Virus record (IMG/VR): IMGVR_UViG_3300045988_169545
Length of the DNA stretch: 42,277 nucleotides
Source: a virus
Strand: one strand, 5' to 3'
A program made the position numbers and the translations under genes. The notes beneath the pieces were generated by a model. The model saw only the letters and a program-made list of their open reading frames with translations. It did no database searches and was not told where the DNA came from. Shown in pieces: positions 1-42,277 of this stretch (positions are counted from its first letter, which is position 1; every line of letters begins with the position of its first letter).

Positions 1-99
1 AAGCATCCATGCAATCGTTGATGACAGGTGTTAGCCGAGAACGTGGGCCACCGGAAAGTCAGCACAACAGAAAAGGGGCCTCCGTATATCTGGGCCGAT
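1..99. repeat. Terminal direct repeat copy 1, 99 bp identical to 42179..42277 and truncated by the window edge. Either circular/terminal redundancy of a phage genome or an att-type flank.
   Basis: Exact 99/99 identity between window start and window end read directly from the sequence. The repeat reaches both window edges, so its true length is unknown. Confidence 0.95.
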
Positions 100-141
100 G
101 TTGGGAGACCCCACCCCGAAACGAGGCGAAAGGATTATACC

Positions 142-390
142 ATGGACGAGGAAAACGAGTACACGCTAACCCGCTACTACACCAGCAGCCCGGACTCCCT
201 TATAGAACGCGTGGCGCCATGCCTTAGGGCTGGCAAGATCGAAGTGGTGCATTACTGCTGCGACCACGTGGCCATAGCGCCTGGCGGAGACGATGACACC
301 ATAAAGGGCATGTCGCGCGTGCTGGCAGAGGTGATAGACGAGCTCTACGAGGCGTCACTAGTGGACTCCATAAGGGCGGCGGCGGAATGA
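142..390 (+). CDS. Hypothetical small protein, 82 aa (MDEENEYTLTRYY...).
   Basis: ATG at 142 preceded by a GAAAGGA Shine-Dalgarno sequence. The ORF is followed by a rho-independent terminator. Confidence 0.45.
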   Translation: MDEENEYTLTRYYTSSPDSLIERVAPCLRAGKIEVVHYCCDHVAIAPGGDDDTIKGMSRVLAEVIDELYEASLVDSIRAAAE

Positions 391-452
391 AACCATCGGT
401 GCATCGTGCTCAGAAGCCAGATTAGCGTCGAAGACCAACACGCGTAGATAAG

Positions 453-477
453 CTCCCGCTTCGGCGGGCTTTTTTTC
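453..477 (+). terminator. Rho-independent terminator (CCCGC-TTCG-GCGGG stem-loop plus T7 run).
   Basis: GC stem 455..468 followed by TTTTTTT at 471..477. Confidence 0.7.
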
Positions 478-480
478 GCC

Positions 481-577
481 CAAATATTTACGTATATTTA
501 TAGTCGATTCTACTTTACGTTTATTTAAACGTATGCTATAATGAATTCATCGAAAGGGACGAGGGAAGGAAAGCAAG
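481..577 (+). promoter_or_regulatory. AT-rich promoter/operator island. It has an extended -10 (TGcTATAAT, 534..542) and a perfect 8-2-8 palindrome TACGTTTA-TT-TAAACGTA (516..533).
   Basis: Local GC is about 25% in a roughly 65% GC genome. A TATAAT hexamer lies about 35 nt upstream of the 578 start, and the palindrome overlaps the -35/-10 spacer. Confidence 0.5.
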
Positions 578-934
578 ATGAAGTACAGCGAGATCGCCAG
601 CTACGCCGGGATCAACGCGGTGGACGCGGGCAAGGTAGCCGATCTTGCCGAGTCGATCAAGGCGAACGGCTGGCAGGGCGCGCCCATCCTCGTGTGCAAC
701 ATGGGCCTCGTGACCGGCTCCCACCGCCTCGCAGCCCTCGCAGAGCTCGATGCCGACCTCGGCTACGACGGCGACGCGCTCGACCAGGACGTGGCCGAGG
801 ACGTGACCGACGAGGTAAACGCCTACTGCGAGCGCGAGGGCATCGGATACGACGAGATCCGGTTCGACCGCCTGCGCGACATTTTCGCCGGCACGTGGGT
901 CGAAGAATACAAAGACCAGATCGTCGAGTGGTAG
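578..934 (+). CDS. ParB/Srx-like nuclease-domain protein, 118 aa.
   Basis: Motif ...SIKANGWQGAPILVCNMGLVTGSHRLAALAEL matches the ParB N-terminal (ParBc) signature (SI..G...PI.V....G.HR..A). A GAAAGGGACGAGGGAAGGAAAG Shine-Dalgarno-like stretch lies upstream. Confidence 0.6.
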   Translation: MKYSEIASYAGINAVDAGKVADLAESIKANGWQGAPILVCNMGLVTGSHRLAALAELDADLGYDGDALDQDVAEDVTDEVNAYCEREGIGYDEIRFDRLRDIFAGTWVEEYKDQIVEW

Positions 935-954
935 CGGAAGGGAGCGTGGTCAGG

Positions 955-1269
955 ATGGGCAAGAGGTACACGGTAGAGGAGTACGGCATCACCCGCAGGG
1001 ACGGCGGAAACTGGGACGACCAGAGCGCGCGCGAAGTCTCGGAGTTCGACACCCTCGAAGAGGCCAGGGCGGCGTTCGAGGCAGTGGACGTCCGAGGCCA
1101 GTGGCTCACCGAAAAGCTCTCGTCGAGCCTACGGCTCATGACGAGCAAGGTCATGGCGGCCGAGCTGTGCGTAAACGAGCTGGACGAGGATGGGGAGATC
1201 GCCGATTCCGAGGTCATCGAATATAAGGAGTTCGGCGCAGAGGACTACGAGAAGGAGGAGGGCCGGTGA
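955..1269 (+). CDS. Hypothetical protein, 104 aa.
   Basis: ATG at 955 with a GGTCAGG Shine-Dalgarno-like sequence. Coding-like composition and tight spacing to the flanking genes. Confidence 0.45.
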   Translation: MGKRYTVEEYGITRRDGGNWDDQSAREVSEFDTLEEARAAFEAVDVRGQWLTEKLSSSLRLMTSKVMAAELCVNELDEDGEIADSEVIEYKEFGAEDYEKEEGR

Positions 1270-1694
1270 ACAAGACCATAAACGGCAAGCGGTACGACAC
1301 GGAGAAGGCGAAGCCGGTCGGCGAGGCGGGAAACGGCCTCTACCCCGGCGACCTCGACTACTACTGTGAGACGCTCTACCTCAAGCGCACGGGCGAGTTC
1401 TTCCTCCACATGGAAGGCGGGCCGCGCAGCGGCTGCGCCAAGGCCGACGGCACCGGATGGGTCGGCGGCGAGGAGCTGCGCCCGGTGTCCTTCGACGGTG
1501 CGCGTGCGTGGGCCGAAAAGAACCTCACGGCGGACGAGTACGCAGAGCTCTTCGGCGAGCCTGACGAGGATGGGACGTCCGTCGTGGCAACGTTCTCCCT
1601 CTCCGCAGCCGCGAAGGCGAAGCTGGAGCGCGAGGCGTCGCGCACGGGCAAGGCGCAATCGGCCATCCTGGAAGAGCTGATAGGGAAGCTGTAG
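1266..1694 (+). CDS. Hypothetical protein with a C-terminal ribbon-helix-helix (CopG/Arc-like) motif, 142 aa.
   Basis: GTG start overlapping the upstream stop (GTGA). The C-terminus ...ATFSLSAAAKAKLEREASRTGKAQSAILEELIGKL fits a beta-strand-helix-helix pattern. Confidence 0.5.
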   Translation: MNKTINGKRYDTEKAKPVGEAGNGLYPGDLDYYCETLYLKRTGEFFLHMEGGPRSGCAKADGTGWVGGEELRPVSFDGARAWAEKNLTADEYAELFGEPDEDGTSVVATFSLSAAAKAKLEREASRTGKAQSAILEELIGKL

Positions 1695-1696
1695 GC

Positions 1697-2950
1697 ATGC
1701 CTCGCGCGAAGGATTTAACAGGCCAGCGGTTCGGAAGGCTCGTGGCGATAGAGCCGACAGCAAAGAGGTATGGCGGCTCCGTCGTTTGGCGCTGTCGGTG
1801 CGATTGCGGCAACGAGCACTTGGTGAGCGCCAGCATACTCAACTCGGGCGCGGTCAGGTCGTGCGGATGCTACAACAAGGAGCGGGTAGCCGAGACGCAC
1901 AGGGTTGATCTGACCGGCCAAAGGTTCGGCAAGCTCGTCGCGGTCGAGCCGACGGACAGGCGCGAGGTCAACAGCATCGTATGGCGCTGCAAATGCGACT
2001 GCGGGAACGAGCACTTCGTGAGCCTGGCGAACCTCAAAAACGGAAGCGTCACGTCCTGCGGATGCCTCCGCAGGCCGAATGTGCAGCCGGGTTCCTCGTT
2101 CGGCGATCTGACCATACTCCGTCAAGTTCACTCGACCGGCACGCGCAGATCCCTTTGGCTGTGCGAGTGCTCGTGCGGAAGGAGGGTCGTGCTGGCTGCC
2201 GGAGAGCTCTTGTCAATGGGGGCAAAGAGCTGCGGAAGGCGTCACGAAAAGCCGATCAACCGGCGTTTCAGTGACCTCGCCGGGCAGCGGTTCGGCTCGC
2301 TGCTCGTCAAGCGCGAGGCCGGAAGATCGAAAGACGGCGGCGTCGTGTGGAGATGCCTCTGCGATTGCGGGAACACCGTCAAGGTGAAAGCAGGCAACCT
2401 CGTCAACGGGCACACGACCTCGTGCGGCTGTAGGAAGGGCAAGCCCGTGGAAGAGGGAGAGCGGTTCGGCTCGCTCGTCGCGGTCGAGCGCGTCGGGACG
2501 AGCGACAAGGGTCAGTCGGTGTGGCGCTGCGAGTGCGACTGCGGAGGGGAGCGCGAGGCGACCGGGGCCGAGCTGCGCTACGGCAACGTCACGTCCTGCG
2601 GATGCGGGGAGACGAAGAGGAGGCGAGCCGCCGAGGCGAGCGGAGTGGTCGATGGAACCCGCCTGTCGAACCTCAACGGCAAGCCGCCGAAGAACAACAC
2701 CAGCGGCGTGCGCGGCGTTTTTCGGAACAAGCGGCGGCAGAAGTGGCAGGCGCAGATAAAGTTCCAGGGGAAGAACCGCTTCCTCGGCTACTTCGACGAC
2801 CTGGCCGACGCGGCCGAGGCGCGCCGGGAGGCGGAGCAGGAGCTGTTCGATCCGGTTCTCGAGGCCCACGGGCGCGCACCTACGTCAGAGGAGGAGTACG
2901 AGGAGGCGCTTAGCAGGGCCGTTGAGGCCGAGCGCGAGAGCGAGAATTAA
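1697..2950 (+). CDS. DNA-binding protein with five tandem roughly 60-aa Cys4 zinc-ribbon repeats and a C-terminal AP2 domain, 417 aa.
   Basis: Five repeats of (L[TA]GQRFG.L....W.C.CDCGN......L..G...SCGC) were read in the translation. The C-terminus ...TSGVRGVFRNKRRQKWQAQIKFQGKNRFLGYFDDLADAAEARREAE is a canonical AP2 (GV+GV...KW.A.I...GK...LG.F....EAA.A) DNA-binding domain. Confidence 0.8.
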   Translation: MPRAKDLTGQRFGRLVAIEPTAKRYGGSVVWRCRCDCGNEHLVSASILNSGAVRSCGCYNKERVAETHRVDLTGQRFGKLVAVEPTDRREVNSIVWRCKCDCGNEHFVSLANLKNGSVTSCGCLRRPNVQPGSSFGDLTILRQVHSTGTRRSLWLCECSCGRRVVLAAGELLSMGAKSCGRRHEKPINRRFSDLAGQRFGSLLVKREAGRSKDGGVVWRCLCDCGNTVKVKAGNLVNGHTTSCGCRKGKPVEEGERFGSLVAVERVGTSDKGQSVWRCECDCGGEREATGAELRYGNVTSCGCGETKRRRAAEASGVVDGTRLSNLNGKPPKNNTSGVRGVFRNKRRQKWQAQIKFQGKNRFLGYFDDLADAAEARREAEQELFDPVLEAHGRAPTSEEEYEEALSRAVEAERESEN

Positions 2951-2986
2951 AAAAGAGGGCCGCCCCGCGAAGGAGCGGCCCTTTTA
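2950..2986. terminator. Bidirectional rho-independent terminator between the convergent 1697..2950 (+) gene and the 3047..4114 (-) endolysin.
   Basis: Stem GGGCCGC (2957..2963) / GCGGCCC (2975..2981), flanked by AAAAA upstream and TTTT downstream. Confidence 0.65.
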
Positions 2987-3046
2987 GTCATGCTGCGCAG
3001 AGCATGAGCTGGAACCGGTCGACGGGCTTCGCGACGCCGCCAGCCG

Positions 3047-4114
3047 TCACGCGGCTGCCAGGTCGGCCCAGAAGGCCGTGATGATGCCGCCGTTGCCGGC
3101 GTAGTCGTCGCCCCACCCGGACGTGTCGGCAAGGTCGCGCATCTTGGCCATGAAGCCCTCGCCCTGGTTGGCCGCCGCGTACTCCACGACTCGCCAGCCT
3201 GTCGAGGCCGGATCGGGCGTGTCGTAGTAGCAGCGTATCGCCGTAATGGGCGAGCCGTCGCCGGCGCAGCCGTACATCAGGTCGCCCGCGTCGTAGCCCG
3301 ACACGGGATCTAGCCAGCCGTTGGCCTGGGTGCGCACCTGGTACCAGCCAGGCATGTCGATGGCGAGCCAGCGCATGGGCTGGCCGTCGCCGGCGTAGGT
3401 GTCGCCGGAGCCGCCCGTGTCGTAGCGGTCTACCATCTCCGGGAGCCAGTAGGCGCCGGAGGGGTCGGAGGAGGAGCGGTAGCGCACCTCCTCGGAGACG
3501 TTGGAGCTGCCGCCCGTGCCCGAGGTTCCGGGGGTCACGACGGAGCCGCTCGCCATATACTCGGCCACGCATCCCTCGAACTGCGCCCACGTGCGCCCGT
3601 AGGCGGCGAAGTAGCCCGTCGGGTCGGTGTGGTCGGTGCCACCCCAGATGCGGCGGCACTCGTCGTGGGACAAGAGCCGGTCTACGCCCCAGCCCCGGCC
3701 CGCCAGGTAGTCGCCGCACCAGCGCACCGCCTCGGCCCACTGCCGGTCGAAATCGACCTGGTTCGTGGAGTGGGCCAGCTCGATGCCCACCGTCTGGTAG
3801 TTGCCGTTGCCGACATGCCAGGCCAGGCGGTCGTCATACATGGTGCGGTACACCGTGCTCCCGTCGAGCTCCATCACGTAGTGGACGGCGTAGTCGGGGT
3901 TGTTGCCCCAGTAGATCACGTGGTTCCACGCGCTCGCGCCGGGGTTGGCCGTCTCGTGGACGACCAGGTACTGGGCGTTGTTGTAGCCGTGGCCCCCGGC
4001 CACGATGTTTTCGCTGCTCTCGTAGGCCATCGCCCGCGCCCCCGGAAGGGCGAGCGAGAGCGCGACGAGGAGCGCGGAGAGCGCCGCGATGGGGCGCCTA
4101 GCCTTCGTCATCAT
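3047..4114 (-). CDS. Endolysin: N-acetylmuramoyl-L-alanine amidase (amidase_2/PGRP fold) with an N-terminal signal peptide, 355 aa.
   Basis: N-terminus MMTKARRPIAALSALLVALSLALPGARA is a signal or signal-arrest-release type leader. YLVVHETANPGAS...GIELAHS... is typical of amidase_2 catalytic domains. It sits in a lysis cassette with a holin. GGGAAGGGGG Shine-Dalgarno sequence. Confidence 0.8.
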   Translation of the reverse strand: MMTKARRPIAALSALLVALSLALPGARAMAYESSENIVAGGHGYNNAQYLVVHETANPGASAWNHVIYWGNNPDYAVHYVMELDGSTVYRTMYDDRLAWHVGNGNYQTVGIELAHSTNQVDFDRQWAEAVRWCGDYLAGRGWGVDRLLSHDECRRIWGGTDHTDPTGYFAAYGRTWAQFEGCVAEYMASGSVVTPGTSGTGGSSNVSEEVRYRSSSDPSGAYWLPEMVDRYDTGGSGDTYAGDGQPMRWLAIDMPGWYQVRTQANGWLDPVSGYDAGDLMYGCAGDGSPITAIRCYYDTPDPASTGWRVVEYAAANQGEGFMAKMRDLADTSGWGDDYAGNGGIITAFWADLAAA

Positions 4115-4349
4115 CCGCGCCCCCCTTCCCCGCCTTGATCTGGCTCGCGCCGATGACCACGCCGACGAACGTCCCGACGGCGTTGATCGTGGTCACGACC
4201 GCCTGGGCCGTCGCCGCGTCCGCGCCCCACGCCCCGGCGCACGTGCCGACGAGCGTGGCGAGCGCGGGTAGTGCGATGAGGCCGGCCCACTTGAGCACGT
4301 CGTAGGCGCGGGACGGGATGAGCCATCCCGCGCCGTCTCTCTCTTCCAT
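4098..4349 (-). CDS. Holin, 83 aa, two transmembrane helices.
   Basis: ATG at 4349 preceded by an AGGAGAGAAT Shine-Dalgarno sequence. Two hydrophobic segments (WAGLIALPALATLVGTCAGAW; AVVTTINAVGTFVGVVIGA) and a charged C-terminus. It overlaps the endolysin start. Confidence 0.7.
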   Translation of the reverse strand: MEERDGAGWLIPSRAYDVLKWAGLIALPALATLVGTCAGAWGADAATAQAVVTTINAVGTFVGVVIGASQIKAGKGGADDDEG

Positions 4350-4366
4350 GATTCTCTCCTTTACAT

Positions 4367-4672
4367 CTAGCCAACTCCGATGCTCGCGAGCGCCCAGCCC
4401 ACGGCGGCCGCCACGAGCGCCCACAGCGCCCTGTCGGCCATGTTCTCCCAGCGCTTCGCGGGCCTCGCCTCCAGGACGGCGAGCCTCTCGTTCATGGCGT
4501 CTATCCGCTGCTGGTTCTGCCGCTCTATCTCCTTGAGGGCGGCGAGCGTCTCGTTGAGCGCGGATAGCTGCTCCTGGTGCTCGTCTATCTTCTTGCTATG
4601 CAAGTCAAGTCGCCTGTCGTGCGCGCCTATGGCGCGAACGTGGGCCGAGTGCTGGGCGCAACTCCCTTCCAT
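4367..4672 (-). CDS. XhlA-like lysis-associated protein (coiled coil plus C-terminal transmembrane helix), 101 aa.
   Basis: Coiled-coil heptads (LSALNETLAALKEIERQNQQRIDAMNERLAVLEA) followed by a C-terminal hydrophobic helix (LWALVAAAVGWALASIGVG). AAGGGAGGTGA Shine-Dalgarno sequence before the ATG at 4672. Confidence 0.55.
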   Translation of the reverse strand: MEGSCAQHSAHVRAIGAHDRRLDLHSKKIDEHQEQLSALNETLAALKEIERQNQQRIDAMNERLAVLEARPAKRWENMADRALWALVAAAVGWALASIGVG

Positions 4673-4757
4673 CGCATCACCTCCCTTCTATGCACAAGTC
4701 AAGTCTGCGTGCGCACCTGGCTATCGGGTAGCGCCCGATCCCGTTGCCTTAGTCGCC

Positions 4758-4811
4758 CAGAATCCCACGCTCGCCTACGCTCGATCTCCCGCGAAAACGC
4801 GTGGGATTCTG
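4758..4811. promoter_or_regulatory. 13-bp perfect inverted repeat (CAGAATCCCACGC ... 28 bp ... GCGTGGGATTCTG) 20 nt upstream of the recombinase start. Each arm carries GCGTGGGATTC, the left-arm motif of the inversion site in the expressed gene.
   Basis: Read directly from the sequence. The 11-mer GCGTGGGATTC is shared with site 6977..6999 (reverse strand). Confidence 0.5.
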
Positions 4812-4831
4812 CGAGAGGAAAGAGGTCAGAA

Positions 4832-5743
4832 ATGAAGCTGGGAACCTACTACGAGGAGACCTACGTGCTGCGCTACCTGTCTCTGTCGCCGACCACGGTG
4901 CAGGGGTACGAGAGCAGCTACCACCTCCACGTCGAGCCGCAGTGGGCCGATTGGGAGATGCACGAAATCAGGGTCAAGCACATCAACACGTGGCTCGCGA
5001 CCGCCTTTATGGACAACCCCGGAGGGGCGGAAAAGGCGTACAAGGTGCTGCGCCAGATACTCCATGCTGCGATGGGCGACGAGGAGTACCCGGACGATGT
5101 TGTAGATCCCACCACCCGCGGCGTCCGCAAGCCCAAGATGCCATGGCACGAGGACGCCCCACGGCTAAGCCCGAAGGAGGTCAAGCAGCTCCTCATCGGC
5201 GTCGTGGGCTGGGAGTACGAGCCCGTGGTGATCTGCGGCGTGTGGCTCGGGCTGCGCCGCAGCGAGGCGTGCGGGCTGCAATGGAGGGATATCGACCTGC
5301 GCACGGGCCTGGTGCGCATCAGGCGCGGCGTGCACTACGTCAAGGGCAAGGTTGTCGTAACCAAGACCAAGACGCACCGCAGCCAGCGCCCGCACATGCT
5401 CCCCAGGACGGCCATAGAGCGCCTGCGCGCGATAAAGCGCGAGCGCAGGGCCAAGCCCACCGACTGGATCATGGGCGACGAGCTGGGCGTTGACGTCCAC
5501 CCAGACCGCTATGCCCGTAGGTTCCGGGCCTTCTGCAATCGCAACGACTTACCCTACGTGGCGCCGAAGTACTTCCGCCACACGTTTCGCAGCAACGCCC
5601 GGAAGGCGGACATACCAGAGCAGGATATCCAGAAGATGCTTGGGCACAGGGAGTTAGAAACATCCTACATCTACATGGAGCTTGATGAGGACGTGCTGCG
5701 CGTAGACCAGCGCGCCCACGAGCGGCTGATCCTGCGTGCGTAG
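4832..5743 (+). CDS. Short tyrosine site-specific recombinase (XerC/Rci-like, 303 aa) with no arm-binding N-domain. Putative DNA invertase for the adjacent cassette array.
   Basis: Catalytic signature residues are present: ...LGLRRSE (Arg), KYFRHTFRS (His-x-x-Arg), LGHRELETSYIYM (His, Tyr nucleophile). A GAGAGGAAAGAGG Shine-Dalgarno sequence precedes the ATG. Its stop TAG (5741..5743) is part of the first conserved recombination site. Confidence 0.9.
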   Translation: MKLGTYYEETYVLRYLSLSPTTVQGYESSYHLHVEPQWADWEMHEIRVKHINTWLATAFMDNPGGAEKAYKVLRQILHAAMGDEEYPDDVVDPTTRGVRKPKMPWHEDAPRLSPKEVKQLLIGVVGWEYEPVVICGVWLGLRRSEACGLQWRDIDLRTGLVRIRRGVHYVKGKVVVTKTKTHRSQRPHMLPRTAIERLRAIKRERRAKPTDWIMGDELGVDVHPDRYARRFRAFCNRNDLPYVAPKYFRHTFRSNARKADIPEQDIQKMLGHRELETSYIYMELDEDVLRVDQRAHERLILRA

Positions 5744-5761
5744 CATTCGGTATCCCCCGTC
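5738..5761 (+). repeat. Putative inversion site 1 (GCGTAGCATTCGGTATCCCCCGTC). The TAG is the recombinase stop codon.
   Basis: One of a family of five related sites. 18/19 identity to the inverted site over ATTCGGTA(T/G)CCCCCGTC. Confidence 0.6.
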
Positions 5762-6046
5762 ATGATCATCGATGACGGCAAAGTCTCGGTGCAGCAGGCG
5801 GGATGTCACATCATAGCTTGTTGCAGGGCTAATGTTGGTGATATCCCTCCATGGGGCACCATACACCTAAAGGATGGACTGCCTAAGCCGGCGAAAGCAG
5901 TTTCAGCAGCGGTGACAGTCCAGGATGCTTCAGCTGTTTGTGCAATTGCCACGATCGGCAGTGACGGAACGCTTCTGCTTGATAATAAATCTAGCGCATC
6001 TGGCGCCGGTTGGGTGTTTTTCGAGATCTCGTATTTCACAACGTAG
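5744..6046 (+). other. Silent alternative C-terminal cassette A (100 codons). It is in frame with its site and is bounded by a TAG stop inside site 2.
   Basis: Open reading frame from the site core to TAG 6044..6046. Same frame (position mod 3 = 2) as the recombinase and cassettes B and C. Confidence 0.55.
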
Positions 6047-6064
6047 CATTCGGTAGCCCACGCA
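6041..6064 (+). repeat. Putative inversion site 2 (ACGTAGCATTCGGTAGCCCACGCA).
   Basis: Identical 17-mer TAGCATTCGGTAGCCCA to site 3. Located exactly at the cassette A/B boundary. Confidence 0.65.
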
Positions 6065-6382
6065 AGTGGGGTGATCACCCCGGTGTTTAACCTCGAGACC
6101 AGCTGGCAACTCACGCGGCGTGCCGGATGGGCGTACCTAGACCTCCGCGCGTACACTCTGCAGTCGGCGTTTGAGACATGGAGCACGCCCATCGCCAGGC
6201 TGCCCGAGGGGTTTCGGCCTGCGAAAAACATACGCTCGATGTGCATGATCGAGGCCCAGTATTGGGAGCAGGTGGCACCGGGATATGTGACCATATTCCC
6301 CAATGGGGATGTGGAGCTAGATTACCGCGTCAACTTCGCGCCGTACACATGCGACGTCTCGGCGGTGTTTCCCCTCGCGTAG
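6047..6382 (+). other. Silent alternative C-terminal cassette B (111 codons).
   Basis: In-frame ORF from site 2 to TAG 6380..6382, with the stop embedded in site 3. Confidence 0.55.
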
Positions 6383-6400
6383 CATTCGGTAGCCCAGGCC
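6377..6400 (+). repeat. Putative inversion site 3 (GCGTAGCATTCGGTAGCCCAGGCC).
   Basis: See site 2. Located at the cassette B/C boundary. Confidence 0.65.
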
Positions 6401-6637
6401 GTCGTGAAGGCCGCGAAGGTCGTGCTTGACAACTTCCGCACGTCCTCGACGGTTGTTGTGACGGTGCCCGTCGCGTGGCCGGTCGACGTCTCGCGCGTGG
6501 TCGCCGTCGTACCGTCGTATGTGTGCCAAGAGTACTCGGACCGCATCGTCGTATCCGACTGGGGTGCCGACGGCGTGGATGTGCGCGCGGGCGTCGACCA
6601 GAACGTCTCCATGACGCTGCATGTCCTCTACGTGTGA
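6383..6637 (+). other. Silent alternative C-terminal cassette C (84 codons).
   Basis: In-frame ORF from site 3 to TGA 6635..6637, with the stop embedded in the degenerate site 4. Confidence 0.5.
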
Positions 6638-6650
6638 TTCGGTAGCGTGG
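6632..6650 (+). repeat. Degenerate site 4 (GTGTGATTCGGTAGCGTGG).
   Basis: Core ATTCGGTAGC is retained, but the left arm has diverged (TGA in place of TAG CAT). Confidence 0.4.
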
Positions 6651-6674
6651 TGGCCGTGTACTAGCCGTAGCCCG

Positions 6675-7103
6675 CTACGACAGCTTGCCAATCCAGACAA
6701 GCTGGTAGTCGAAGTGGAGGCCGATTGATGACTCTGCGTCGGGCCATGCAACGATCTCTACGGAATCGTAGGTTGTCTTGTTGATATAGGCGTCCTTAGC
6801 TGACCAACCTCCCGTGCGCCTGGCAATCCCGGCATAAAGACACGACTCGACCCGTCTCGGCAATTCGATGGTCTTTATATTTTCGCCCGCTTTGAGCAGC
6901 GTAAACGAGTCCCAAAAAGTGAAGATTGCGCAGTTGTCGGGCAGTTGCAGCATGCTCCAGTGGCCCCCTAGATCGACGGGGGCTACCGAATCCCACGCGT
7001 CGTTCGCGGCGGCGATTCCGTCCTCCATATGGTTGAGCCTGTCGGCCGTCAGGGTGGTTCCGCCAGACACCAAGTCACGCCAGATTTGCTTAAGGTAACT
7101 CAT
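6675..7103 (-). CDS. Tail-tip / putative receptor-binding protein (142 aa) with a 37-aa constant N-terminus and an invertible variable C-terminal cassette (currently cassette D).
   Basis: Last gene of the tail-fibre module, with its ATG overlapping the upstream stop (ATGA). It contains inverted site 5 at the junction between the N-terminal part and the remaining 105 aa. Confidence 0.65.
   Translation of the reverse strand: MSYLKQIWRDLVSGGTTLTADRLNHMEDGIAAANDAWDSVAPVDLGGHWSMLQLPDNCAIFTFWDSFTLLKAGENIKTIELPRRVESCLYAGIARRTGGWSAKDAYINKTTYDSVEIVAWPDAESSIGLHFDYQLVWIGKLS
6977..6999 (-). repeat. Inversion site 5 inside the expressed tail gene, in inverted orientation to sites 1-4 (reverse strand reads GCGTGGGATTCGGTAGCCCCCGT).
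   Basis: The reverse complement of 6977..6999 shares the 12-bp core ATTCGGTAGCCC with sites 2 and 3 and 18/19 bp with site 1. It lies at codons ...A-W-D-S-V-A-P-V..., 37 codons into the gene. Confidence 0.65.
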
Positions 7104-7240: not shown

Positions 7241-7244
7241 TGCC

Positions 7245-8431: not shown

Positions 8432-8435
8432 TGCC

Positions 8436-9416: not shown

Positions 9417-9417
9417 G

Positions 9418-33357: not shown

Positions 33358-33490
33358 GAGGCCCGTCCTTTCGTTTCGATTCTCTTCGCGCGGACCCCGC
33401 CGTCCGCGTTGCGCATGCGTCCATGCTCCCGAGAGACGGCGCGCCGTACGCCTTCCGCCCCTCCCCGCGTTTGCGCGCTTCCCTCCGGCG

Positions 33491-33718: not shown

Positions 33719-33768
33719 GTCTTGTCCGCCAAAGGCTATATCGGGCGCGACGAAGGCATTACAGACGC

Positions 33769-35018: not shown

Positions 35019-35029
35019 CGCAGCCCCCT

Positions 35030-35437: not shown

Positions 35438-35439
35438 AG

Positions 35440-35766
35440 CTAGCCTCTGTACTCTCTGTCGATCTGCGCCTCCAGCAGGCGCGCGTCGAGCTTGTATACA
35501 TTGAGCGCCTCGCGGGCGCTGTCGTATTCGACCTGCGCGCAGTCGCGCGCGAACATGGGGACAGATACGCGCTCGTCGCCTTTGAGGATCATTGCTATCA
35601 TGGTCGCGCTGTAGCCGTCTGCCTTGAGGGACAGCGCCGCGGCGGCCTTGGCCGTCTGGTACTCGGCCTCGGCCTTGGCAAGCGCAACTCCGCGGCGTTT
35701 CAGCTCCTCGGATGCCCTCTTCATCAGGTCGCGGTCGCGCACGAGGTCTGCTATCAGGTCGCTCAT
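35440..35766 (-). CDS. Hypothetical protein, 108 aa.
   Basis: ATGA overlap with the Rad52-like gene. Coding-like helical sequence. Confidence 0.5.
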   Translation of the reverse strand: MSDLIADLVRDRDLMKRASEELKRRGVALAKAEAEYQTAKAAAALSLKADGYSATMIAMILKGDERVSVPMFARDCAQVEYDSAREALNVYKLDARLLEAQIDREYRG

Positions 35767-36473
35767 AGCTCGGCCTCAAATTCCTCGGCGACGAGGTTGA
35801 AGAACTCGGCGGTCTCCTCGTAGTCGGAGCGCATCTTCACCCCGTCGGAAATCTTCTCCGGCGTAGACCCGTGCTTCTCTGCGTATGCCCTGCATGCCGC
35901 CCACAGGCGCGCCTTGGCGTCCCTCACGGGGTCTTTCCTCGGCTGGTCGGGCTTCTTCGCGCCGATACGCCTCTGCATGTCGTAGGCGGCCTTCCCGTTG
36001 CACGAGACGGCGAGATCGGTTATCTTCCCGTCCTCGACCTTGATGCGCGTGACGGCGAACCTGTCGTAGCAGACGGGGTTGCCGTTGCGCCCCTTCTTGA
36101 TCTCGCAGATGCCCGTGGGCACCCATATGTCCGGGGCCGTGTACAGCTCGCGACCGACGCCCCAGCAGAAGCAGGCCCTCTTGAAGCTGTCCGACGACTC
36201 CCCCTTCTCCGACTCGGTGTTGGACTCAACCCCGCAGTCGGACTTCCACACCCACTCCCCGTCGATCGATATGCCGACGCGGCAGAACATGCGGCCCTTG
36301 ACCTCGTAGTGCTCGCGCTGCCAGTTCTCCGGCCCCACAACCTCGTCGAGGATGCGCATGTCGCATCGGGCGTCTTTGTAGAGCAGCAGCCACACGCCCT
36401 TGTCCTCCACGATGCGCGACACGCGCACGTCGATCTCATCGGCCTCGAGCGCGCGGAAGTTGAGCGACGTCAT
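35763..36473 (-). CDS. Rad52/Sak-family single-strand annealing protein, 236 aa.
   Basis: ...ILDEVVGPENWQREHYEV...SDSFKRACFCWGVGRELY matches the Rad52/22 family core (G..nWq.ey.....SDA.KRA...fGiGr.LY). Confidence 0.75.
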   Translation of the reverse strand: MTSLNFRALEADEIDVRVSRIVEDKGVWLLLYKDARCDMRILDEVVGPENWQREHYEVKGRMFCRVGISIDGEWVWKSDCGVESNTESEKGESSDSFKRACFCWGVGRELYTAPDIWVPTGICEIKKGRNGNPVCYDRFAVTRIKVEDGKITDLAVSCNGKAAYDMQRRIGAKKPDQPRKDPVRDAKARLWAACRAYAEKHGSTPEKISDGVKMRSDYEETAEFFNLVAEEFEAEL

Positions 36474-36694
36474 GCCGCATCACCGCCTATCCTCGCCAGG
36501 TACCCATCGATTGCGCCCTCGACGAGCGATCCGAAAAGCTCCGGCTTATTGCACGAGGCCAGGAGGTCGATGCCTGCCGCCGCGCCCATGAGGAACACGG
36601 CCGCCTCCCTGCTTCCCGCGTTCTTCGCCTGGGACTCGCACGACCCCGCCGACTGCTCCATCTCGTCTACCGTAGCGTTGAAGTTGATTCTCAT
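36470..36694 (-). CDS. Hypothetical protein, 74 aa.
   Basis: ORF in the operon. Confidence 0.4.
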   Translation of the reverse strand: MRINFNATVDEMEQSAGSCESQAKNAGSREAAVFLMGAAAGIDLLASCNKPELFGSLVEGAIDGYLARIGGDAA

Positions 36695-36743
36695 GCTTCC
36701 TCCAGCTCGAATTTTCTGTAGGTGCCATACGGATTCCTGTTTT

Positions 36744-37058
36744 TCAAGAGCGTACGATTCTGATAGGCTCCAGCTTCTTCACGCGCTCTATGAACACCCG
36801 GTCGCGCCGCCTGAACGCCTTCGCGTCATCGCGCCTGCCGAAGTGGTACAGCTCCGTGCGCAGCGCGTTCACGGCCTTGTCGGCGATCCGCAGCGCGTCC
36901 GCACCATCGACCTCCGGAATTCCGTCCACCTCGTACACGTCGCCAACCTCGGCGCTCTCGAAGAACTCGGTGAGCGTGGCCCTGGCGAACACTCGAAGCG
37001 GGCTCTTGGCCTCCGTGCGGGAATCGGGTACGTCCTCTCTCGCGATCTGCTTCAACAT
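36744..37058 (-). CDS. Hypothetical early protein, 104 aa.
   Basis: First leftward gene after the divergent AT-rich region 37059..37165. Confidence 0.45.
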   Translation of the reverse strand: MLKQIAREDVPDSRTEAKSPLRVFARATLTEFFESAEVGDVYEVDGIPEVDGADALRIADKAVNALRTELYHFGRRDDAKAFRRRDRVFIERVKKLEPIRIVRS

Positions 37059-37165
37059 TTCTTCCTCCTTACGAACAAATGTTTACGCGTTATCAACGCG
37101 TATTAATGTCGCAGACTTTACGATACATTAACGCGTAAGTCAACGGCTTTCGCAAAGGAGTTCCG
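37059..37165. promoter_or_regulatory. Divergent promoter/operator region with the palindrome TACGCGTT-ATC-AACGCGTA (37082..37100) and a related half-site copy TTAACGCGTAA (37127..37137).
   Basis: AT-rich island between the divergently transcribed 36744..37058 (-) and 37166..37441 (+) genes. Perfect 8-3-8 inverted repeat. Confidence 0.5.
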
Positions 37166-37441
37166 ATGTTCAAGGACAGGCTTCGCTCGGCAAGGATGCA
37201 TCGGCAGATCACCCAGCAAAGAATGGCCGATGCTGTTGGAATCGCCCTTCGGTCGTACCAACAGTATGAGCAGGGGAAAAGCGAGCCTCCGCTTAGCGCG
37301 CTGGCAATCCTGTCCGACACGCTCAACGTTCCTTCCGATTGGCTTCTATGCCGGGACGATTACCTGGAATCTCTCGGAGTGTCCGTTGATGTACCCCGAA
37401 CAAATCCTCCAAGGCGTCCCAGACCCAAATGCTCCCGGTAG
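37166..37441 (+). CDS. XRE-family helix-turn-helix transcriptional regulator, 91 aa.
   Basis: ...LRSARMHRQITQQRMADAVGIALRSYQQYEQGKSEPPLSALAILSDTLNVPSDWLL is a classic XRE/Cro-CI helix-turn-helix. AAAGGAG Shine-Dalgarno sequence. Confidence 0.7.
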   Translation: MFKDRLRSARMHRQITQQRMADAVGIALRSYQQYEQGKSEPPLSALAILSDTLNVPSDWLLCRDDYLESLGVSVDVPRTNPPRRPRPKCSR

Positions 37442-37556
37442 CTTCCCCATCTTCGATTTCTTGGTAGTACCGCAAGCTGATCCCCAGCTTGTCGGCGACC
37501 TGCTGCTGGGTCATTCCCTCGGCCTTACGGGCCACTTTAAGCGTCTCCCTGCTCAT
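37323..37556 (-). CDS. XRE-family helix-turn-helix regulator, 77 aa, convergent with the previous gene and overlapping its 3' end.
   Basis: ...ARKAEGMTQQQVADKLGISLRYYQEIEDGE is an XRE helix-turn-helix. The two coding tails overlap by about 118 nt. Confidence 0.6.
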   Translation of the reverse strand: MSRETLKVARKAEGMTQQQVADKLGISLRYYQEIEDGEATGSIWVWDALEDLFGVHQRTLREIPGNRPGIEANRKER

Positions 37557-37933
37557 GCTTCCTCCAACTCAACCACGACACGGGCATCGCCCGATGCGCG
37601 GTAGCATTTATGGTTCACGTCGCCCACCTCGTCGAAGCCGTCATCGGGTATGACTCGCATCTCCACGAGGGCGTCCAAGATGAACTTGACCGCGAACTGG
37701 ATGTTGTCGCGGTCGCGCATCCTCGCGCCCTTGCGCTTCGGCTTCTCGTACCAAGCGATACGGACGTTCACGGGCGTCCTCATGGGCTTTAGGTGCGCCT
37801 CCTTGATGGCCCGCAGGACCGCGTCCTGGTTCTCCCGCTTCATCTTCGCGCCAAGCTGGCGGTTCGCCCGGCACGCCCTCGTGTACTCGTTCAGGCCCGC
37901 CAGCCTGCCGGGGATCTCGAAGGCCTGCCTCAT
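37553..37933 (-). CDS. rusA: RusA-family Holliday-junction resolvase, 126 aa.
   Basis: RDRDNIQFAVKFILDALVEMRVIPDDGFDEV fits the RusA catalytic motif (D.DN..K...DAL.....DD). Confidence 0.65.
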   Translation of the reverse strand: MRQAFEIPGRLAGLNEYTRACRANRQLGAKMKRENQDAVLRAIKEAHLKPMRTPVNVRIAWYEKPKRKGARMRDRDNIQFAVKFILDALVEMRVIPDDGFDEVGDVNHKCYRASGDARVVVELEEA

Positions 37934-38274
37934 ATCTCCACCTCCGTGAAGGCGTCAACCTTCGAGCGGCCCATGGCGATGCGCGGGCGGTAGTGTGCGC
38001 GCTCCGCGGGCTTCATCTGCTCGAGCCATATGCGCGCGAAGGCGGGCGTGTAGGCGTTGGGCACCTGCACGCGAAACCTGCGCCTCATGGCGTGCGTCAC
38101 GGCGTCGGAGCTGGCGCGGCCCGCGTCGGCGTCCGCCCGCATCTCCCGGCAGTAGAACTGCCACTCGTCGTAGTGGGTCGCGGCCCAGCGCCGAGCCTCC
38201 TGCATAAGCTCCTCGCCCTCGCCCCCGAGGCCGGGGAGGGCCGTCTGGTTCGACGGCGGGTCGAGGCGCCTCAT
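37930..38274 (-). CDS. Hypothetical protein, about 114 aa.
   Basis: ATG at 38274 with a GGAGG Shine-Dalgarno sequence. The upstream part of the computed ORF is noise. Confidence 0.45.
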   Translation of the reverse strand: MRRLDPPSNQTALPGLGGEGEELMQEARRWAATHYDEWQFYCREMRADADAGRASSDAVTHAMRRRFRVQVPNAYTPAFARIWLEQMKPAERAHYRPRIAMGRSKVDAFTEVEI

Positions 38275-38453
38275 GCGACCGCCTCCCATATCAGCCACAG
38301 AGACCCGGCAAGGACGAACAGCCACGGCAGGCCCCGGCACATGCGCTCCCAGTCGGTATGTGGTATACTCCCACCGTCTTCACAGACGGATGCGCGCTGA
38401 CTTTCCACGGTGGGCGCGCTTTCCTTTTTACGCGGCATCTTCTGCCTCCTCAT
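38271..38453 (-). CDS. Small membrane-anchored protein, 60 aa.
   Basis: C-terminal hydrophobic helix LPWLFVLAGSLWLIW. Confidence 0.4.
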   Translation of the reverse strand: MRRQKMPRKKESAPTVESQRASVCEDGGSIPHTDWERMCRGLPWLFVLAGSLWLIWEAVA

Positions 38454-38646
38454 CTTTCCCGCTCCACGCTTCGCGCACGAAGTTAGTCAGCGCTGGCTCG
38501 ATATCGCCCAGCGTCACGTCGCGCGGCACGTGGATGGTGGCTGACCCGTATGCGCCCTCGTAGTGGTGCTCGCCAGCCGGGAACGCCACGGCGCTCATGT
38601 CGCTCATGTCCTCTCCTCTCGTAGGTTGGTAGTTGTTGGCACGCAA
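38428..38646 (-). CDS. Hypothetical acidic protein, 72 aa.
   Basis: ORF only. Confidence 0.35.
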   Translation of the reverse strand: MRANNYQPTRGEDMSDMSAVAFPAGEHHYEGAYGSATIHVPRDVTLGDIEPALTNFVREAWSGKDEEAEDAA

Positions 38647-38843
38647 GAGCGCGACTTAGCCTTGCTTTCGAGCGTGCTGCTAGGTTGTCAAGGTGCTCTC
38701 CCGATAGGCACGGGAGCGGCAGCACGTTCCGTGCGCAGAGGAGGGGATCGCTCGGCGGGCGCTTAGCCCTGTGCTGCCAGTTTCGTACCTATCCGGTAGT
38801 GGAGGCCGATGCGCTATCCGTTGCGCTAGGCGGCCGTGCTTCC

Positions 38844-39071
38844 CTAACTCGCCTTACGCTCGTTACGCTCCCAGAAATCGTCTGTGCTGCATTCGAGCGC
38901 ATCCGCAAGATCGCAGATCGTCTCGAAGCTCGGCTTGGTCGCGCACATCTCGTAGCGCGCGACGGTGCCAAGCGACACGCCCGACGCCTCCGCGAGCTCG
39001 TTCTGGTTCCAGCCCATCTCCGCGCGCTTCACCTTGAGCTGGCGCGCGAAAAAATCAGCGTTGAACGGCAT
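38844..39071 (-). CDS. Cro-like XRE-family helix-turn-helix regulator, 75 aa.
   Basis: ...MGWNQNELAEASGVSLGTVARYE... helix-turn-helix. Second leftward gene from the switch region, divergent from the CI-like repressor. Confidence 0.7.
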   Translation of the reverse strand: MPFNADFFARQLKVKRAEMGWNQNELAEASGVSLGTVARYEMCATKPSFETICDLADALECSTDDFWERNERKAS

Positions 39072-39260
39072 TCACTCACCCCCTTTCTGACCTAGGCCAC
39101 GCACGACCAAGTGCCATGCGACGGAGAAGCCACCAAGTAAGGCCGCCGCGAACGCGTCGAAGGCAAACCCCCATGAGAAGCCGCCGACCGCGTACCAGTA
39201 GGCGGCCGCGATAACGAACCCAATGGATAGCCCAGCAGAGATCGGCGCGACGCTCTTCAC
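39072..39260 (-). CDS. Small two-transmembrane-helix membrane protein, 62 aa.
   Basis: Two hydrophobic helices. First leftward gene from the switch. Confidence 0.45.
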   Translation of the reverse strand: MKSVAPISAGLSIGFVIAAAYWYAVGGFSWGFAFDAFAAALLGGFSVAWHLVVRGLGQKGGE

Positions 39261-39401
39261 GATTCCTCCTTCCGAAGTTACACAATATGAGTAACTTTGC
39301 CCATTATTACCTCATTATGCGTAACTGTCAACCAAGAATTACACATTTTGTTGAACTGATTACACTTTCCGTGTATCATGCGCGATAAGAAGGAGGCTGC
39401 C
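39261..39401. promoter_or_regulatory. Lysis/lysogeny switch region: AT-rich, with the palindrome AGTTAC-N9-GTAACT (39268..39288) and repeated (A/G)ATTACAC half-sites (39330..39339, 39355..39364), plus divergent promoters.
   Basis: Located between the divergent Cro-like/membrane genes (-) and the CI-like repressor (+). TATCAT -10-like box at 39375 and AAGGAGG at 39390. Confidence 0.6.
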
Positions 39402-39770
39402 GTGAAACTTCAGATGAAGCGAATTCGAGAATCGAAGGGGTTCAGCCAGCAATATGTAGCTGATCAGATTTGCGTTCCCGTGCGAAGGTATGGAAGCTGG
39501 GAACGGGAAGAGCGCAAAATCAACTTCGAGGATGCGATTCGTGTTGCCGAAGTCCTCGGCTGCACCACCGACGAGCTTGCCGGCCGGAAGCCCATCCGTT
39601 CCTTCGCCGACCCCCAGCAGGCGGCTCTCAACGGATACTACGAGTCCATGAACGAGCGCGGGCGCGCTACCTTGGTGGAGAGCGCGAGGCTCATGAGCGA
39701 CGGCGATTCCGTCAGAATCGAAAAAGACGGGGCCGAACATTCTGGAATACAGACCGCGATGGGAGCGTAG
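39402..39770 (+). CDS. CI-like repressor (N-terminal XRE helix-turn-helix), about 122 aa.
   Basis: Helix-turn-helix ...RIRESKGFSQQYVADQICVPVRRYGSWEREERKINFEDAIRVAEVLGCTTDELAG. GTG at 39402 sits 5 nt after AAGGAGG, and an alternative upstream ATG is at 39378. Confidence 0.7.
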   Translation: MKLQMKRIRESKGFSQQYVADQICVPVRRYGSWEREERKINFEDAIRVAEVLGCTTDELAGRKPIRSFADPQQAALNGYYESMNERGRATLVESARLMSDGDSVRIEKDGAEHSGIQTAMGA

Positions 39771-40535
39771 ATGAATAAGGACAACACTAACGCTCTCCTC
39801 GACAAGGTGGAGAACACCGCCCGCCGCATTGCGTTGGCTCTAGGCGGTATGTTTATTGCGTCGATCGCCTCGGCGATATTGGTTAACGAATGGATCATCG
39901 AGCAGTGGAGGACCAGCACGATGTCTTTCATCGGCGGAATGCTTGCAGCGGCGCTTTTAGGCGCCTGCATGGCATGCTGTGCCCTCACTCCCGTTTTGAG
40001 GTCGAAGATAAACAGGCTCTCCCACGAGCTTGAAAAGCGCCCGACACAGGAACATCTCAACGAAGCTCTCGCCGAAAAAGACTCCCGAATGGAAGCTGCT
40101 CTCGCCGAAAAAGATGCGCGTATCGCAGAGCTTGAGACTAACGAGGACCTCGACGCATCGATGCGCGAGTACCTGTCCATGGGATGGCTCGCCCAAGTTT
40201 CCTGCTTCAACGCCCACAGCACCGGTGGATTCGTGGTGTCTGGCGACGAGATCGAAGGTTTCGGCAAAGACGAGATATCGAACATGCCGCGTGCGGAGGC
40301 GCGAGACGCCGGGTTCCTGAACATCGAAGAGTGCGGTATCGACAGGATGCGAGCGGAGCCGACCAGGAAGCTCGAGGAGCTGTACGCGGGAAGGCCGGAG
40401 ATTCTCAAGAAGATGTACGAATCAGCTCTTCACGAGGCCACGAAAGAAGCCGCAAATACACCAGACATTGATTGGCGCGATGTTGAGCTGATCGAGAACG
40501 GCGCGATGATTATTCCGAAAGACGCACCAAAATAG
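39771..40535 (+). CDS. Membrane protein with two transmembrane helices and a long cytoplasmic coiled coil, 254 aa. Candidate superinfection-exclusion or lysogenic-conversion function.
   Basis: Transmembrane helices IALALGGMFIASIASAILV and FIGGMLAAALLGACMACCAL. Heptad-rich EKDSRMEAALAEKDARIAELE. Position between the repressor and the integrase. Confidence 0.55.
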   Translation: MNKDNTNALLDKVENTARRIALALGGMFIASIASAILVNEWIIEQWRTSTMSFIGGMLAAALLGACMACCALTPVLRSKINRLSHELEKRPTQEHLNEALAEKDSRMEAALAEKDARIAELETNEDLDASMREYLSMGWLAQVSCFNAHSTGGFVVSGDEIEGFGKDEISNMPRAEARDAGFLNIEECGIDRMRAEPTRKLEELYAGRPEILKKMYESALHEATKEAANTPDIDWRDVELIENGAMIIPKDAPK

Positions 40536-40617
40536 CAATTAAGCCCCGCGCATCACAGGGTTGCCGCCCTAGCGCGAGGCTCGAGAGAATTAACCGATCC
40601 ATGGAAGGAGCGGTCGC

Positions 40618-42162
40618 ATGTATGATAGCATGCCCGCCGAGTGGTTGTGTTGCGCCTACTTGCGAAAATCACGCGAGGACGAGGAGCGTGAGAAGCAGGG
40701 TAGGTACAAGACGCTCGAACGTCATAAGGCTATCCTTGAAAGCCTATCGTCTGACAACGGCCATAAGATCGCGCAATGGTATCCCGAGATCGTAAGCGGT
40801 GAGACCATCGAGGGCCGCCCCGAAGTAAAGAAGCTGCTCGCTGACCTTGCGTCTGGAAAATGGGATGCCGTGTACGTGGTGGAGGCATCACGCCTTGGAC
40901 GTGGAGGCGGAAGCGATCAAGAGAAGATCGTGAACGCTTTTCGGTACACGAACACATGGCTCGTGACCGAGGAGAAGGTTTACGACCCGTCATCCAAAGC
41001 CGATATGCGCCAGCTCAAAAACGACCTGCGCAGCTCGGAAGACGAATTGGACAGCATAACCACCCGCCTCACCCGCGGCAAGTATCGCTCGGCACAGGAA
41101 GGCAGATGGCAGGCCACCGGGCGCACGCCTTACGGGTGGCGCGCCGTGCGCATCGCGGGCCTCTGGCAGCTAAGGCCCGACGAGAACCACTGTCACATGC
41201 TGCGCATATACGACCTCTTGGAGAGCGGTCTTACCCCATGGGACGTGGCGAACATCTACAACGCAGAAGGCATCCCGACGCCAAGAGGAGGCGATCACTG
41301 GACCGCGGCCATCGTGCGAGCCATCGCGCTCAACCCCGCCAACTGCGGGTACGTTGTGTTCGGCAAACACAAGACCATGCGCATTTTTGACCCGGTGACT
41401 TTCGAGGCGAAGAAGGTACGTGTAAAGAACGACAAACCAGTCATGGTGAAGGGCTTGCACTACGGCACGGGAGGCATCAGCGAGGAGCGCTTCGAGCGCA
41501 TCACCGGGCACCTTGTCGGTTCAGCCCACCTGCGCAAGGGCTTGGAACTCAAAAACCCCCTGGCCCGTCTGCTGAAATGCGGCAAGTGCGGCTATGCGAT
41601 GAACCACCACCGCATGAGCTCGGGCAAAAGCTACGGGTACTTTTACCAACACCCGGCAAAAAGGAACATGACGCGCGCGTGCGACGGATGCCGCGGTGCG
41701 AGGGATGACCTGGTTATGGACACGTTGGTGGCATCCCTCCGCAGCCTGTGCAACGACATAGAGCTGCGCATCAAGGCCGACAATAGGGCGAGCGAGCACG
41801 AGGCCCATATCGAGGCCCTGCGAAAGGAGCTGGAGAAGGTGCGCGCCGCCAGAAGCCGCGCCATGGAAGCCTACGAGGCAGGCGCCTACACCATCGCCGA
41901 GCTCAAGGCCCGTAAAGACGAGGCGGAGAAGCGCATGGAGAGTATCGAGCGTGCGATCAAGGACGCCAAACCGCCGAAGTACACGCCGGAGCTGGTGGTG
42001 TCGATAAACAAGTGCATCGACATGTTGCTTGACGATACCGTATCCGTGCAGGTCAAGAACGATTTCCTGAAGTCGGTCATAGGGAGGATCGATTATTACA
42101 ACGATACTCCCCCGTTCGTGCACGACAACAAGGTACACCTAGAGATTTTTCTTCGCCAATAA
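40618..42162 (+). CDS. Large serine recombinase (phage integrase), 514 aa.
   Basis: N-terminal resolvase catalytic domain with the nucleophile in AYLRKSRED. Recombinase domain. Zinc ribbon CGKCGYAMNHH...CDGC. C-terminal coiled coil. Adjacent to the terminal repeat and putative attP. Confidence 0.9.
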   Translation: MYDSMPAEWLCCAYLRKSREDEEREKQGRYKTLERHKAILESLSSDNGHKIAQWYPEIVSGETIEGRPEVKKLLADLASGKWDAVYVVEASRLGRGGGSDQEKIVNAFRYTNTWLVTEEKVYDPSSKADMRQLKNDLRSSEDELDSITTRLTRGKYRSAQEGRWQATGRTPYGWRAVRIAGLWQLRPDENHCHMLRIYDLLESGLTPWDVANIYNAEGIPTPRGGDHWTAAIVRAIALNPANCGYVVFGKHKTMRIFDPVTFEAKKVRVKNDKPVMVKGLHYGTGGISEERFERITGHLVGSAHLRKGLELKNPLARLLKCGKCGYAMNHHRMSSGKSYGYFYQHPAKRNMTRACDGCRGARDDLVMDTLVASLRSLCNDIELRIKADNRASEHEAHIEALRKELEKVRAARSRAMEAYEAGAYTIAELKARKDEAEKRMESIERAIKDAKPPKYTPELVVSINKCIDMLLDDTVSVQVKNDFLKSVIGRIDYYNDTPPFVHDNKVHLEIFLRQ

Positions 42163-42178
42163 CACCTATGAGAAGGGT

Positions 42179-42277
42179 AAGCATCCATGCAATCGTTGAT
42201 GACAGGTGTTAGCCGAGAACGTGGGCCACCGGAAAGTCAGCACAACAGAAAAGGGGCCTCCGTATATCTGGGCCGAT
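42179..42277. repeat. Terminal direct repeat copy 2, identical to 1..99.
   Basis: Exact match. It begins 16 bp after the serine integrase stop codon (42160..42162). Confidence 0.95.

Follow-up and report, generated by a model that had tools for sequence, protein, structure and literature searches.

Terminal overlap and serine-integrase attachment sites of a phage contig assigned to Gordonibacter

Mycobacteriophage Bxb1 has attachment (att) sites with an 8-bp common core and a central non-palindromic dinucleotide, and its attB lies inside the host gene groEL1. The Bacillus subtilis phage SPbeta sits inside the protein-coding host gene spsM and restores spsM on excision. Serine integrases recombine the phage site attP with the host site attB, and not attP with attL or attR, the sites that bound an integrated copy. 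The prophage clades of Eggerthella lenta are reported to carry tyrosine integrases only (PMC8778435, the one study of Eggerthellaceae prophages that literature searches brought up), and a Rin shufflon is known from prophages of Bifidobacterium and E. lenta (PMC8778435). Here we analyze IMG/VR virus record IMGVR_UViG_3300045988_169545, a stretch of 42,277 nucleotides (referred to as the window, which denotes the whole stretch) that encodes a serine integrase close to its right end and carries the same 99 bases at both ends. Taken as a whole, the evidence is best explained, with good confidence, by a complete circular 42,178-bp genome of a phage of the human gut bacterium Gordonibacter, a member of the Eggerthellaceae; the repeat would be the closing overlap of the assembly, and the circle would have been opened at the att core. 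What is new here is the phage and the att pair of its serine integrase, both of which are ordinary in kind; literature searches found no description of a prophage in vsr or of a Gordonibacter phage.

The integrase, a protein of 514 residues, is encoded on the plus strand at 40618..42162, the stop codon at 42162 agreeing with the original prediction, which had been made from the letters of the window. It matches PF00239 (7e-15), PF07508 (3.9e-11), PF13408 (8.7e-07) and phrog_95 (6.7e-77). Specifically, the PF00239 resolvase catalytic domain covers residues 13-164, and the motif YLRKSRED aligns with GYLRRSRQD of the SPbeta integrase SprA, which places Ser18 at the position of the catalytic serine. 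The closest solved relative is SprA itself (YokA; 9dxh, E 2.7e-35, residues 13-488), and a weak helical match over residues 391-451 is consistent with a helical (coiled-coil) insert. By its predicted domains, namely a catalytic domain with its serine followed by recombinase and zinc beta-ribbon domains with a helical insert, the protein is a large serine recombinase. It shares with SprA the layout of resolvase, recombinase and zinc-ribbon/coiled-coil regions, but the two sequences are distant, and in the present case the host is a gut actinobacterium and the target is vsr rather than spsM. In further contrast to SPbeta, neither a recombination directionality factor nor evidence of programmed excision was found for this phage. 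The likeness to Bxb1 extends to the actinobacterial host, the large serine integrase, the 8-bp core, an attP of ~50 bp with imperfect inverted repeats, and an attB in a host gene that is interrupted by lysogeny, whereas the target gene and the core sequence are unrelated and the central dinucleotide proposed here is CC.

The terminal repeat and the junction in other assemblies

The longest prefix of the window that is also its suffix is exactly 99 nt (1..99 = 42179..42277, 0 mismatches), and a prefix-suffix comparison confirmed the earlier statement that the repeat is exact and is cut by both edges, as each copy abuts an end of the window. For an exact 99-mer to recur by chance within 42 kb is effectively impossible. 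Without one repeat copy, the unique sequence amounts to 42,178 bp, with a guanine-plus-cytosine (GC) content of 64.3%. We denote the phage arms of the attachment sites P and P', and the host arms B and B'. The left overlap copy (1..99, plus strand) consists of the 8-bp att core (1..8) and the initial 91 nt of the P' arm, while the identical right copy (42179..42277, plus strand) stands in its true context with the P arm before it, so that the whole attP is found at this end of the window.

The exact 514-residue integrase is listed in 202 blocks of a public assembly collection, and the matching contigs form two classes. In the attP class, ten listed contigs (L006-L009, L013, L017-L020 and L062, where L013 is the same record as L008) carry the integrase, a single junction and an 82-residue gene contiguously. 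Their 157-bp spacer and 82-residue gene are the same as those of the circularized window, identical or nearly so, and the 99-mer is present once at the junction. The contiguity of P, core and P' in these ten contigs supports the original prediction of a circular phage contig with an assembly overlap. The non-coding stretch that had been put at roughly 160 bp, from 42163 to 141, measures 157 bp on the circle, and the next gene in the related contigs starts at window position 142. A metagenome scan with the core and P' arm yielded two extra contigs only, one of attP type and one an attL in a Collinsella-like vsr gene; the exact 99-mer and the integrase had no match in the IMG/VR viral contigs.

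Six contigs form the attR class (L001-L005 and L010), in which identity to the window ends exactly after window base 8. Past the integrase, they match the window over 24 nt only (42163..42178 plus window 1..8), and beyond those lie a minus-strand fragment of vsr and then bacterial ABC-transporter genes. The other end of the prophage was retrieved via the 118-residue protein encoded at 578..934. In the resulting attL contigs L015 and L016, and in L063, identity to the window sets in precisely at base 1; in L015 and L016, a bacterial pyruvate:ferredoxin oxidoreductase gene is followed by the 3' part of vsr, which meets the phage sequence. Both L005 and L015 come from a single NCBI contig, in which they mark the two ends of a ~41.7-kb prophage. 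The direct repeat that flanks the integrated element is the 8-bp sequence AAGCATCC, and none longer is found.

These boundaries bear directly on the alternative that had been offered for the repeat, namely an integrated prophage with attL and attR repeats of at least 99 bp that arose by target duplication. A terminal direct repeat is indeed present, and this is all that speaks for it. The six attR and three attL contigs set the boundaries at window base 8 and window base 1, so that attL and attR of integrated copies share 8 bp only, and the uninterrupted attB of Gordonibacter pamelaeae, described below, likewise holds only the 8-bp core. Moreover, window 42187..42277 belongs to the P' arm of the phage rather than to the B' arm of the host, and host sequence does not lie outside both copies, since the right copy has the P arm before it and the P' arm after it. 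This alternative is refuted by the shared 8 bp, and we give it a vanishingly small probability. On the other hand, the short core that had been expected of a serine integrase is indeed what the contigs show. The repeat had also been judged not to resemble a tRNA 3' end, and a tRNA scan of the window found neither tRNA nor transfer-messenger RNA genes anywhere in it, so the site is not of the tRNA type.

As a separate observation, an open reading frame for 107 residues is called at attL in L015 and L016 (9165..9488, minus strand; equivalent to window 1..65 plus the host B arm). From a start in the phage P' arm it continues, without a change of frame, into the C-terminal 85 residues of Vsr, and it is probably incidental.

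The attachment site in vsr and the host

The suggestion that the non-coding stretch past the integrase holds attP could be made more precise. The proposed attP of 52 bp lies at 42160..42211 (plus strand; TAACACCTATGAGAAGGGTAAGCAT-CC-ATGCAATCGTTGATGACAGGTGTTA), overlaps the integrase stop codon, and has its centre at window 7-8. A search for inverted repeats around a central dinucleotide, which had been recommended for the region 42163..141, is answered by a perfect 8-bp pair at the ends of this site, with TAACACCT at 42160-42167 (including the integrase stop codon) and AGGTGTTA at 42204-42211. Around CC, 16 of the 25 half-site positions are symmetric, a score that is matched or exceeded at only 0.033% of phage positions; for other centres in or beside the 8-bp core, the dyad score never exceeds 11. 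The core itself (42179..42186, also window 1..8, plus strand) is common to attP, attB, attL and attR, and its extent is defined by the identity limits of the attR and attL contigs. The site thereby combines an attP of ~50 bp, imperfect inverted repeats around a non-palindromic dinucleotide and a short core with an attB that is restored exactly.

A polymorphism in the core points to the position of strand exchange. The attL core in L016 (9424..9431) reads AAGCACCC, and all 11 attP copies have AAGCATCC. The phage arm of L016 is 100% identical to the window and its host arm is ~95% identical to G. pamelaeae, for which reason we regard L016 as derived from a second Gordonibacter species. The variant C in its core is most simply host-derived; strand exchange would therefore occur to the right of core position 6, in accord with CC. 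The attP symmetry centre falls between core positions 7 and 8, and this centre together with the L016 core would place the crossover at the dinucleotide CC (42185..42186, also window 7..8, plus strand).

Vsr is the very-short-patch repair endonuclease, which acts on deaminated 5-methylcytosine. The B arm taken from L015 and the B' arm taken from L005, joined through the core, form a minus-strand open reading frame that matches the Escherichia coli Vsr protein (1cw0, E 5.9e-21) and corresponds to an intact Vsr. Integration splits this gene at ...FVNG-C|FWHRCPHC, that is, attB is positioned at the GCFWH motif. An attB scan by pattern search, covering one genome per species, returned 41 Coriobacteriia loci. 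Among these is an empty attB in G. pamelaeae CCUG 55131 (L031), where the locus is uninterrupted and is 100% identical to the reconstruction over 1,408/1,408 bp. It is on the basis of this empty site that the host is assigned to Gordonibacter. In the lysogens, the 5' part of vsr ends in ...FVNGCLPFS-stop within the phage arm and is without the FWH motif and the entire C-terminal half, from which Vsr activity would be expected to be lost.

The module may not be confined to a single genus. In L063, a low-coverage contig of ~1.8 kb (1758 nt), a P' arm with 94% identity to the window is joined to a vsr gene that matches Collinsella metagenome-assembled genomes most closely, and the B arm is 85% identical to those genomes. 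The B half-site of 24 nt is almost identical in all three hosts, namely the two Gordonibacter species and the bearer of the Collinsella-like vsr, and the module may on this ground be functional in more than one family of Coriobacteriia.

The opening point and the length of the overlap

The position at which the contig opens and the length of its overlap can be accounted for together. In the explanation that we favor, the phage DNA would have been assembled from an excised or replicating form whose ends are joined at attP, and the 99-bp repeat would not be part of the DNA molecule but would be the closing node of a circular de Bruijn path, output at both the start and the end. The integrase would recombine the 52-bp attP with attB inside host vsr at the core. 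The attL of a lysogen (B-core-P') and the attP of the excised phage (P-core-P') are identical rightwards from core base 1, and the 99-mer at this point would therefore be the only node with two predecessors. A cycle printed from that in-branch node would yield exactly the window.

We modeled this situation with a toy directed de Bruijn graph that had 99-mers as nodes and contained the phage circle and a lysogen (B + phage + core + B'). In this graph, window 1..99 is the sole node that has two predecessors, and the sole one that has two successors ends at 42186. When the cycle is read out from the in-branch node and closed by writing this node a second time, the result is identical to the window at each of the 42,277 bases. 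A final k of 99 (or of 100, with 99 as k-1) is usual among assemblers, and we infer that k was 99 (or 100) in the source assembly. Base 1 of the window is the first core base, and because the window starts exactly there, the opening point is informative rather than arbitrary, which suggests that integrated and excised forms coexisted in the source sample. Contigs in other assemblies of the phage likewise end at branch points of the graph, either at a 65-bp exact repeat (7732-7796 and 9444-9508) or at a shufflon that is described below. The 65-bp repeat lies within a 90-nt direct repeat (7712..7801 / 9424..9513, 90% identical) at the ends of two adjacent tail genes; several scaffolds of the phage of ~40-41 kb in other assemblies stop at this 90-nt repeat.

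In an alternative reading, a circle was cut at random, the coincidence with the core is due to chance and no integrated form was in the sample. Assemblers open isolated cycles at arbitrary nodes, and the presence of attL in the source sample is deduced from the cut point and not from reads. A random opening would, however, hit either special position, an in-branch start or an out-branch end, with a probability of only ~2/42,178, and we consider this account highly improbable. Alternatively, the repeat could be an assembly overlap while the P-P' junction stems not from a free circle but from replicative concatemers, which carry this junction too, or from a tandem double lysogen. The graph of a tandem prophage (B-P'...P-P'...P-B') is the same as that of a circle plus a lysogen. 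Given the specificity of serine integrases for attP x attB, a tandem would nonetheless require homologous recombination, and the occurrence of host-free attP-type contigs in many samples is better fitted by routine excision or induction. We therefore judge this origin of the junction to be improbable, though less so than a random cut.

Several points weigh against the explanation by a circle opened at the att core. The link of 99 to the final k comes from common assembler settings and not from the source assembly, and only the cut point indicates that attL and attP coexisted, the window being the only contig so far that starts on the core. The polymorphism that places the crossover comes from one contig only (L016). 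In addition, dyad symmetry around CC is absent from attB (3/20 matches); attB symmetry is often weak among large serine recombinases, and its weakness here therefore lowers confidence in the exact centre, not in the family membership of the enzyme. Lastly, a comparison of the large terminase subunit with solved structures gave no meaningful relative, the single hit being a marginal one to 7on6 (E 0.0019), which is an unrelated protein, so that cos, pac and direct terminal repeat (DTR) packaging are indistinguishable by sequence here.

This ambiguity of the packaging type leaves room for a reading of the 99 bp as a true DTR of linear virion DNA with fixed ends in the style of T7 or T5, and a genome of this type would likewise give exact terminal repeats on a phage-sized contig. 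The repeat, however, begins on the first base of the att core, which is expected of a graph branch but for which a packaging end offers no reason, and the terminase genes are ~18 kb away, at 22.7-24.6 kb. The length of the repeat equals a common assembler k, and other assemblies have a single copy of the 99-mer at the junction. Terminal redundancy of this kind is, in our estimate, very unlikely. The circular phage with a closing overlap conforms instead to the circular/DTR contigs of metagenome catalogues, a class that is used to call complete viral genomes: the overlap is exact and has a length typical of assembler k, independent assemblies have one junction copy, and a full set of phage genes lies between the copies. 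It departs from that class in that the contig opens on the first att-core base, a trace of the integrated form.

Gene content, lineage and possible effect on the host

A compact gene map was derived from a codon-usage model and the GC content at codon positions. The window holds the complete genome of one temperate siphovirus in excised (attP) form, with plus-strand genes at 142..2950, a long minus-strand block from 3047 to ~39071 and a plus-strand lysogeny block at 39378..42162. The first gene after attP (142..390, plus strand) encodes the 82-residue protein, has no family match, and adjoins attL in lysogens. In the lysogeny module upstream of the integrase is a CI-type helix-turn-helix (HTH) repressor of 130 residues (39378..39770, plus strand; phrog_8, phrog_3; PF01381), and divergent from it is a Cro-type HTH gene of 75 residues (38844..39071, minus strand), for which PF13560/PF01381 were matched on an identical gene in related contigs. 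The minus strand encodes the small terminase subunit of P27/Terminase_4 type (24209..24586; PF05119, 3.4e-09; phrog_83), the large terminase subunit (22774..24198; phrog_9, 2.7e-36), an SPP1 Gp6-like portal protein (21287..22828; phrog_104, 1.7e-97), the major head protein (19037..19936; phrog_544, 9.4e-38), the tape measure protein of a siphovirus tail (12810..15956; phrog_1686, 1.6e-60) and an endolysin (amidase; 3047..4114; PF01510). It also encodes a C5 cytosine DNA methyltransferase (29923..31110; phrog_116, 1.2e-96; PF00145) and a second methyltransferase-like protein (28652..29218). Further families found by scan are a Dp1-type holin, a head protease, major tail, tail and tail-fibre proteins, a ParB-nuclease, Erf, SSB and a replication-initiation protein. 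Megablast of both window halves against 50,697 deposited phage records matched only a methyltransferase motif of 69-75 nt in Burkholderia phages, and the phage is accordingly without a named relative among those records.

Adjoining the tail-fibre genes is a shufflon region (4832..7103). A tyrosine recombinase of 303 residues (4832..5743, plus strand; phrog_1, 2.4e-38) stands beside 18-nt sites, CGTAGCATTCGGTAGCCC, at 5739-5756, 6042-6059 and 6378-6395 on the plus strand and at 6980-6997 on the minus strand, with a weaker copy at 6630-6646; the cassettes between the sites measure ~300 bp. In L006-L009, L015-L017 and L020, contigs that are otherwise ~96-100% identical, most of them at least 98.8%, these cassettes occur inverted or in another order. 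The C-terminus of the expressed 142-residue protein (6675..7103, minus strand) varies with the cassette arrangement. Many short contigs end in the shufflon, and the observations suggest that arrangements are mixed within samples. The locus thus has the features of the Rin type, a tyrosine recombinase beside several short sites in both orientations and rearranged cassettes, and it agrees with the Rin shufflon in the small size of the recombinase, its position by the tail-fibre genes, direct and inverted sites of ~18 nt and cassettes of ~300 bp; it differs in that it is found here in a Gordonibacter phage with a serine integrase.

Comparison of the contigs also revealed differences outside the shufflon. 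L002, L004, L005, L007 and L010 have identical integrase and immunity genes and a wholly different early region upstream, as compared with window ~30000..38300. The alternative region encodes an IstB-like ATPase, an 834-residue N6/N4 methyltransferase, a DNA polymerase III beta clamp, a DUF3310 protein, a 395-residue tyrosine recombinase and a PAPS reductase, and the difference is an exchange of modules inside one phage lineage. Conversely, L011, L014 (7835..9361) and L012 are close relatives with common structural and lysis genes that carry another serine recombinase, of 508 residues, together with a HicAB toxin-antitoxin pair and an S24 peptidase repressor, and that are without the 82-residue gene. 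The L012 prophage occupies another chromosomal site, next to a peptidase S58 gene; given the other recombinase and the other site, the integrase/att module has been swapped.

Between attP and the minus-strand block, a 417-residue HNH endonuclease with an AP2-type DNA-binding domain is encoded at 1697..2950 (plus strand). Its length in relatives is 417 (L006), 375 (L012/L015), 237 (L008) or 44 residues (L011), and it looks like a homing endonuclease that is being gained or eroded. A role as packaging partner of the P27-type small terminase was considered for this protein and rejected, as it has an AP2-type domain, its gene lies a long way from the terminase, and relatives have a shortened version or none.

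The repeat itself is an ordinary by-product of assembly and not to be taken for biology. What it closes is the complete genome of a new, otherwise ordinary temperate siphovirus, whose host and state are now assigned and which, with its integrase in 202 blocks, is very widespread in the human gut. The att sites form a base-resolved attP/attB pair whose target is conserved in Coriobacteriia; genetic tools for this group are few, and the pair could serve as an integrating vector. In genome scans, a circular contig that opens exactly at an att core can be read as evidence of both lysogen and excised phage in a sample.

The insertion in vsr also invites a more speculative proposal, which we regard as unlikely while ranking it above the alternative origins of the repeat and the junction: the prophage may reversibly switch a DNA-repair gene off and on. 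The phage has its own C5 cytosine methyltransferase and its integration truncates host vsr, splitting the gene at the GCFWH motif, and excision would restore it exactly. Lysogens would gain 5-methylcytosine yet lack very-short-patch repair of the resulting T:G mismatches. The logic would be comparable to that of SpyCIM1 in mutL and SPbeta in spsM, and integration would in this case impose a reversible, site-specific mutator state on a common bacterium of the human gut.

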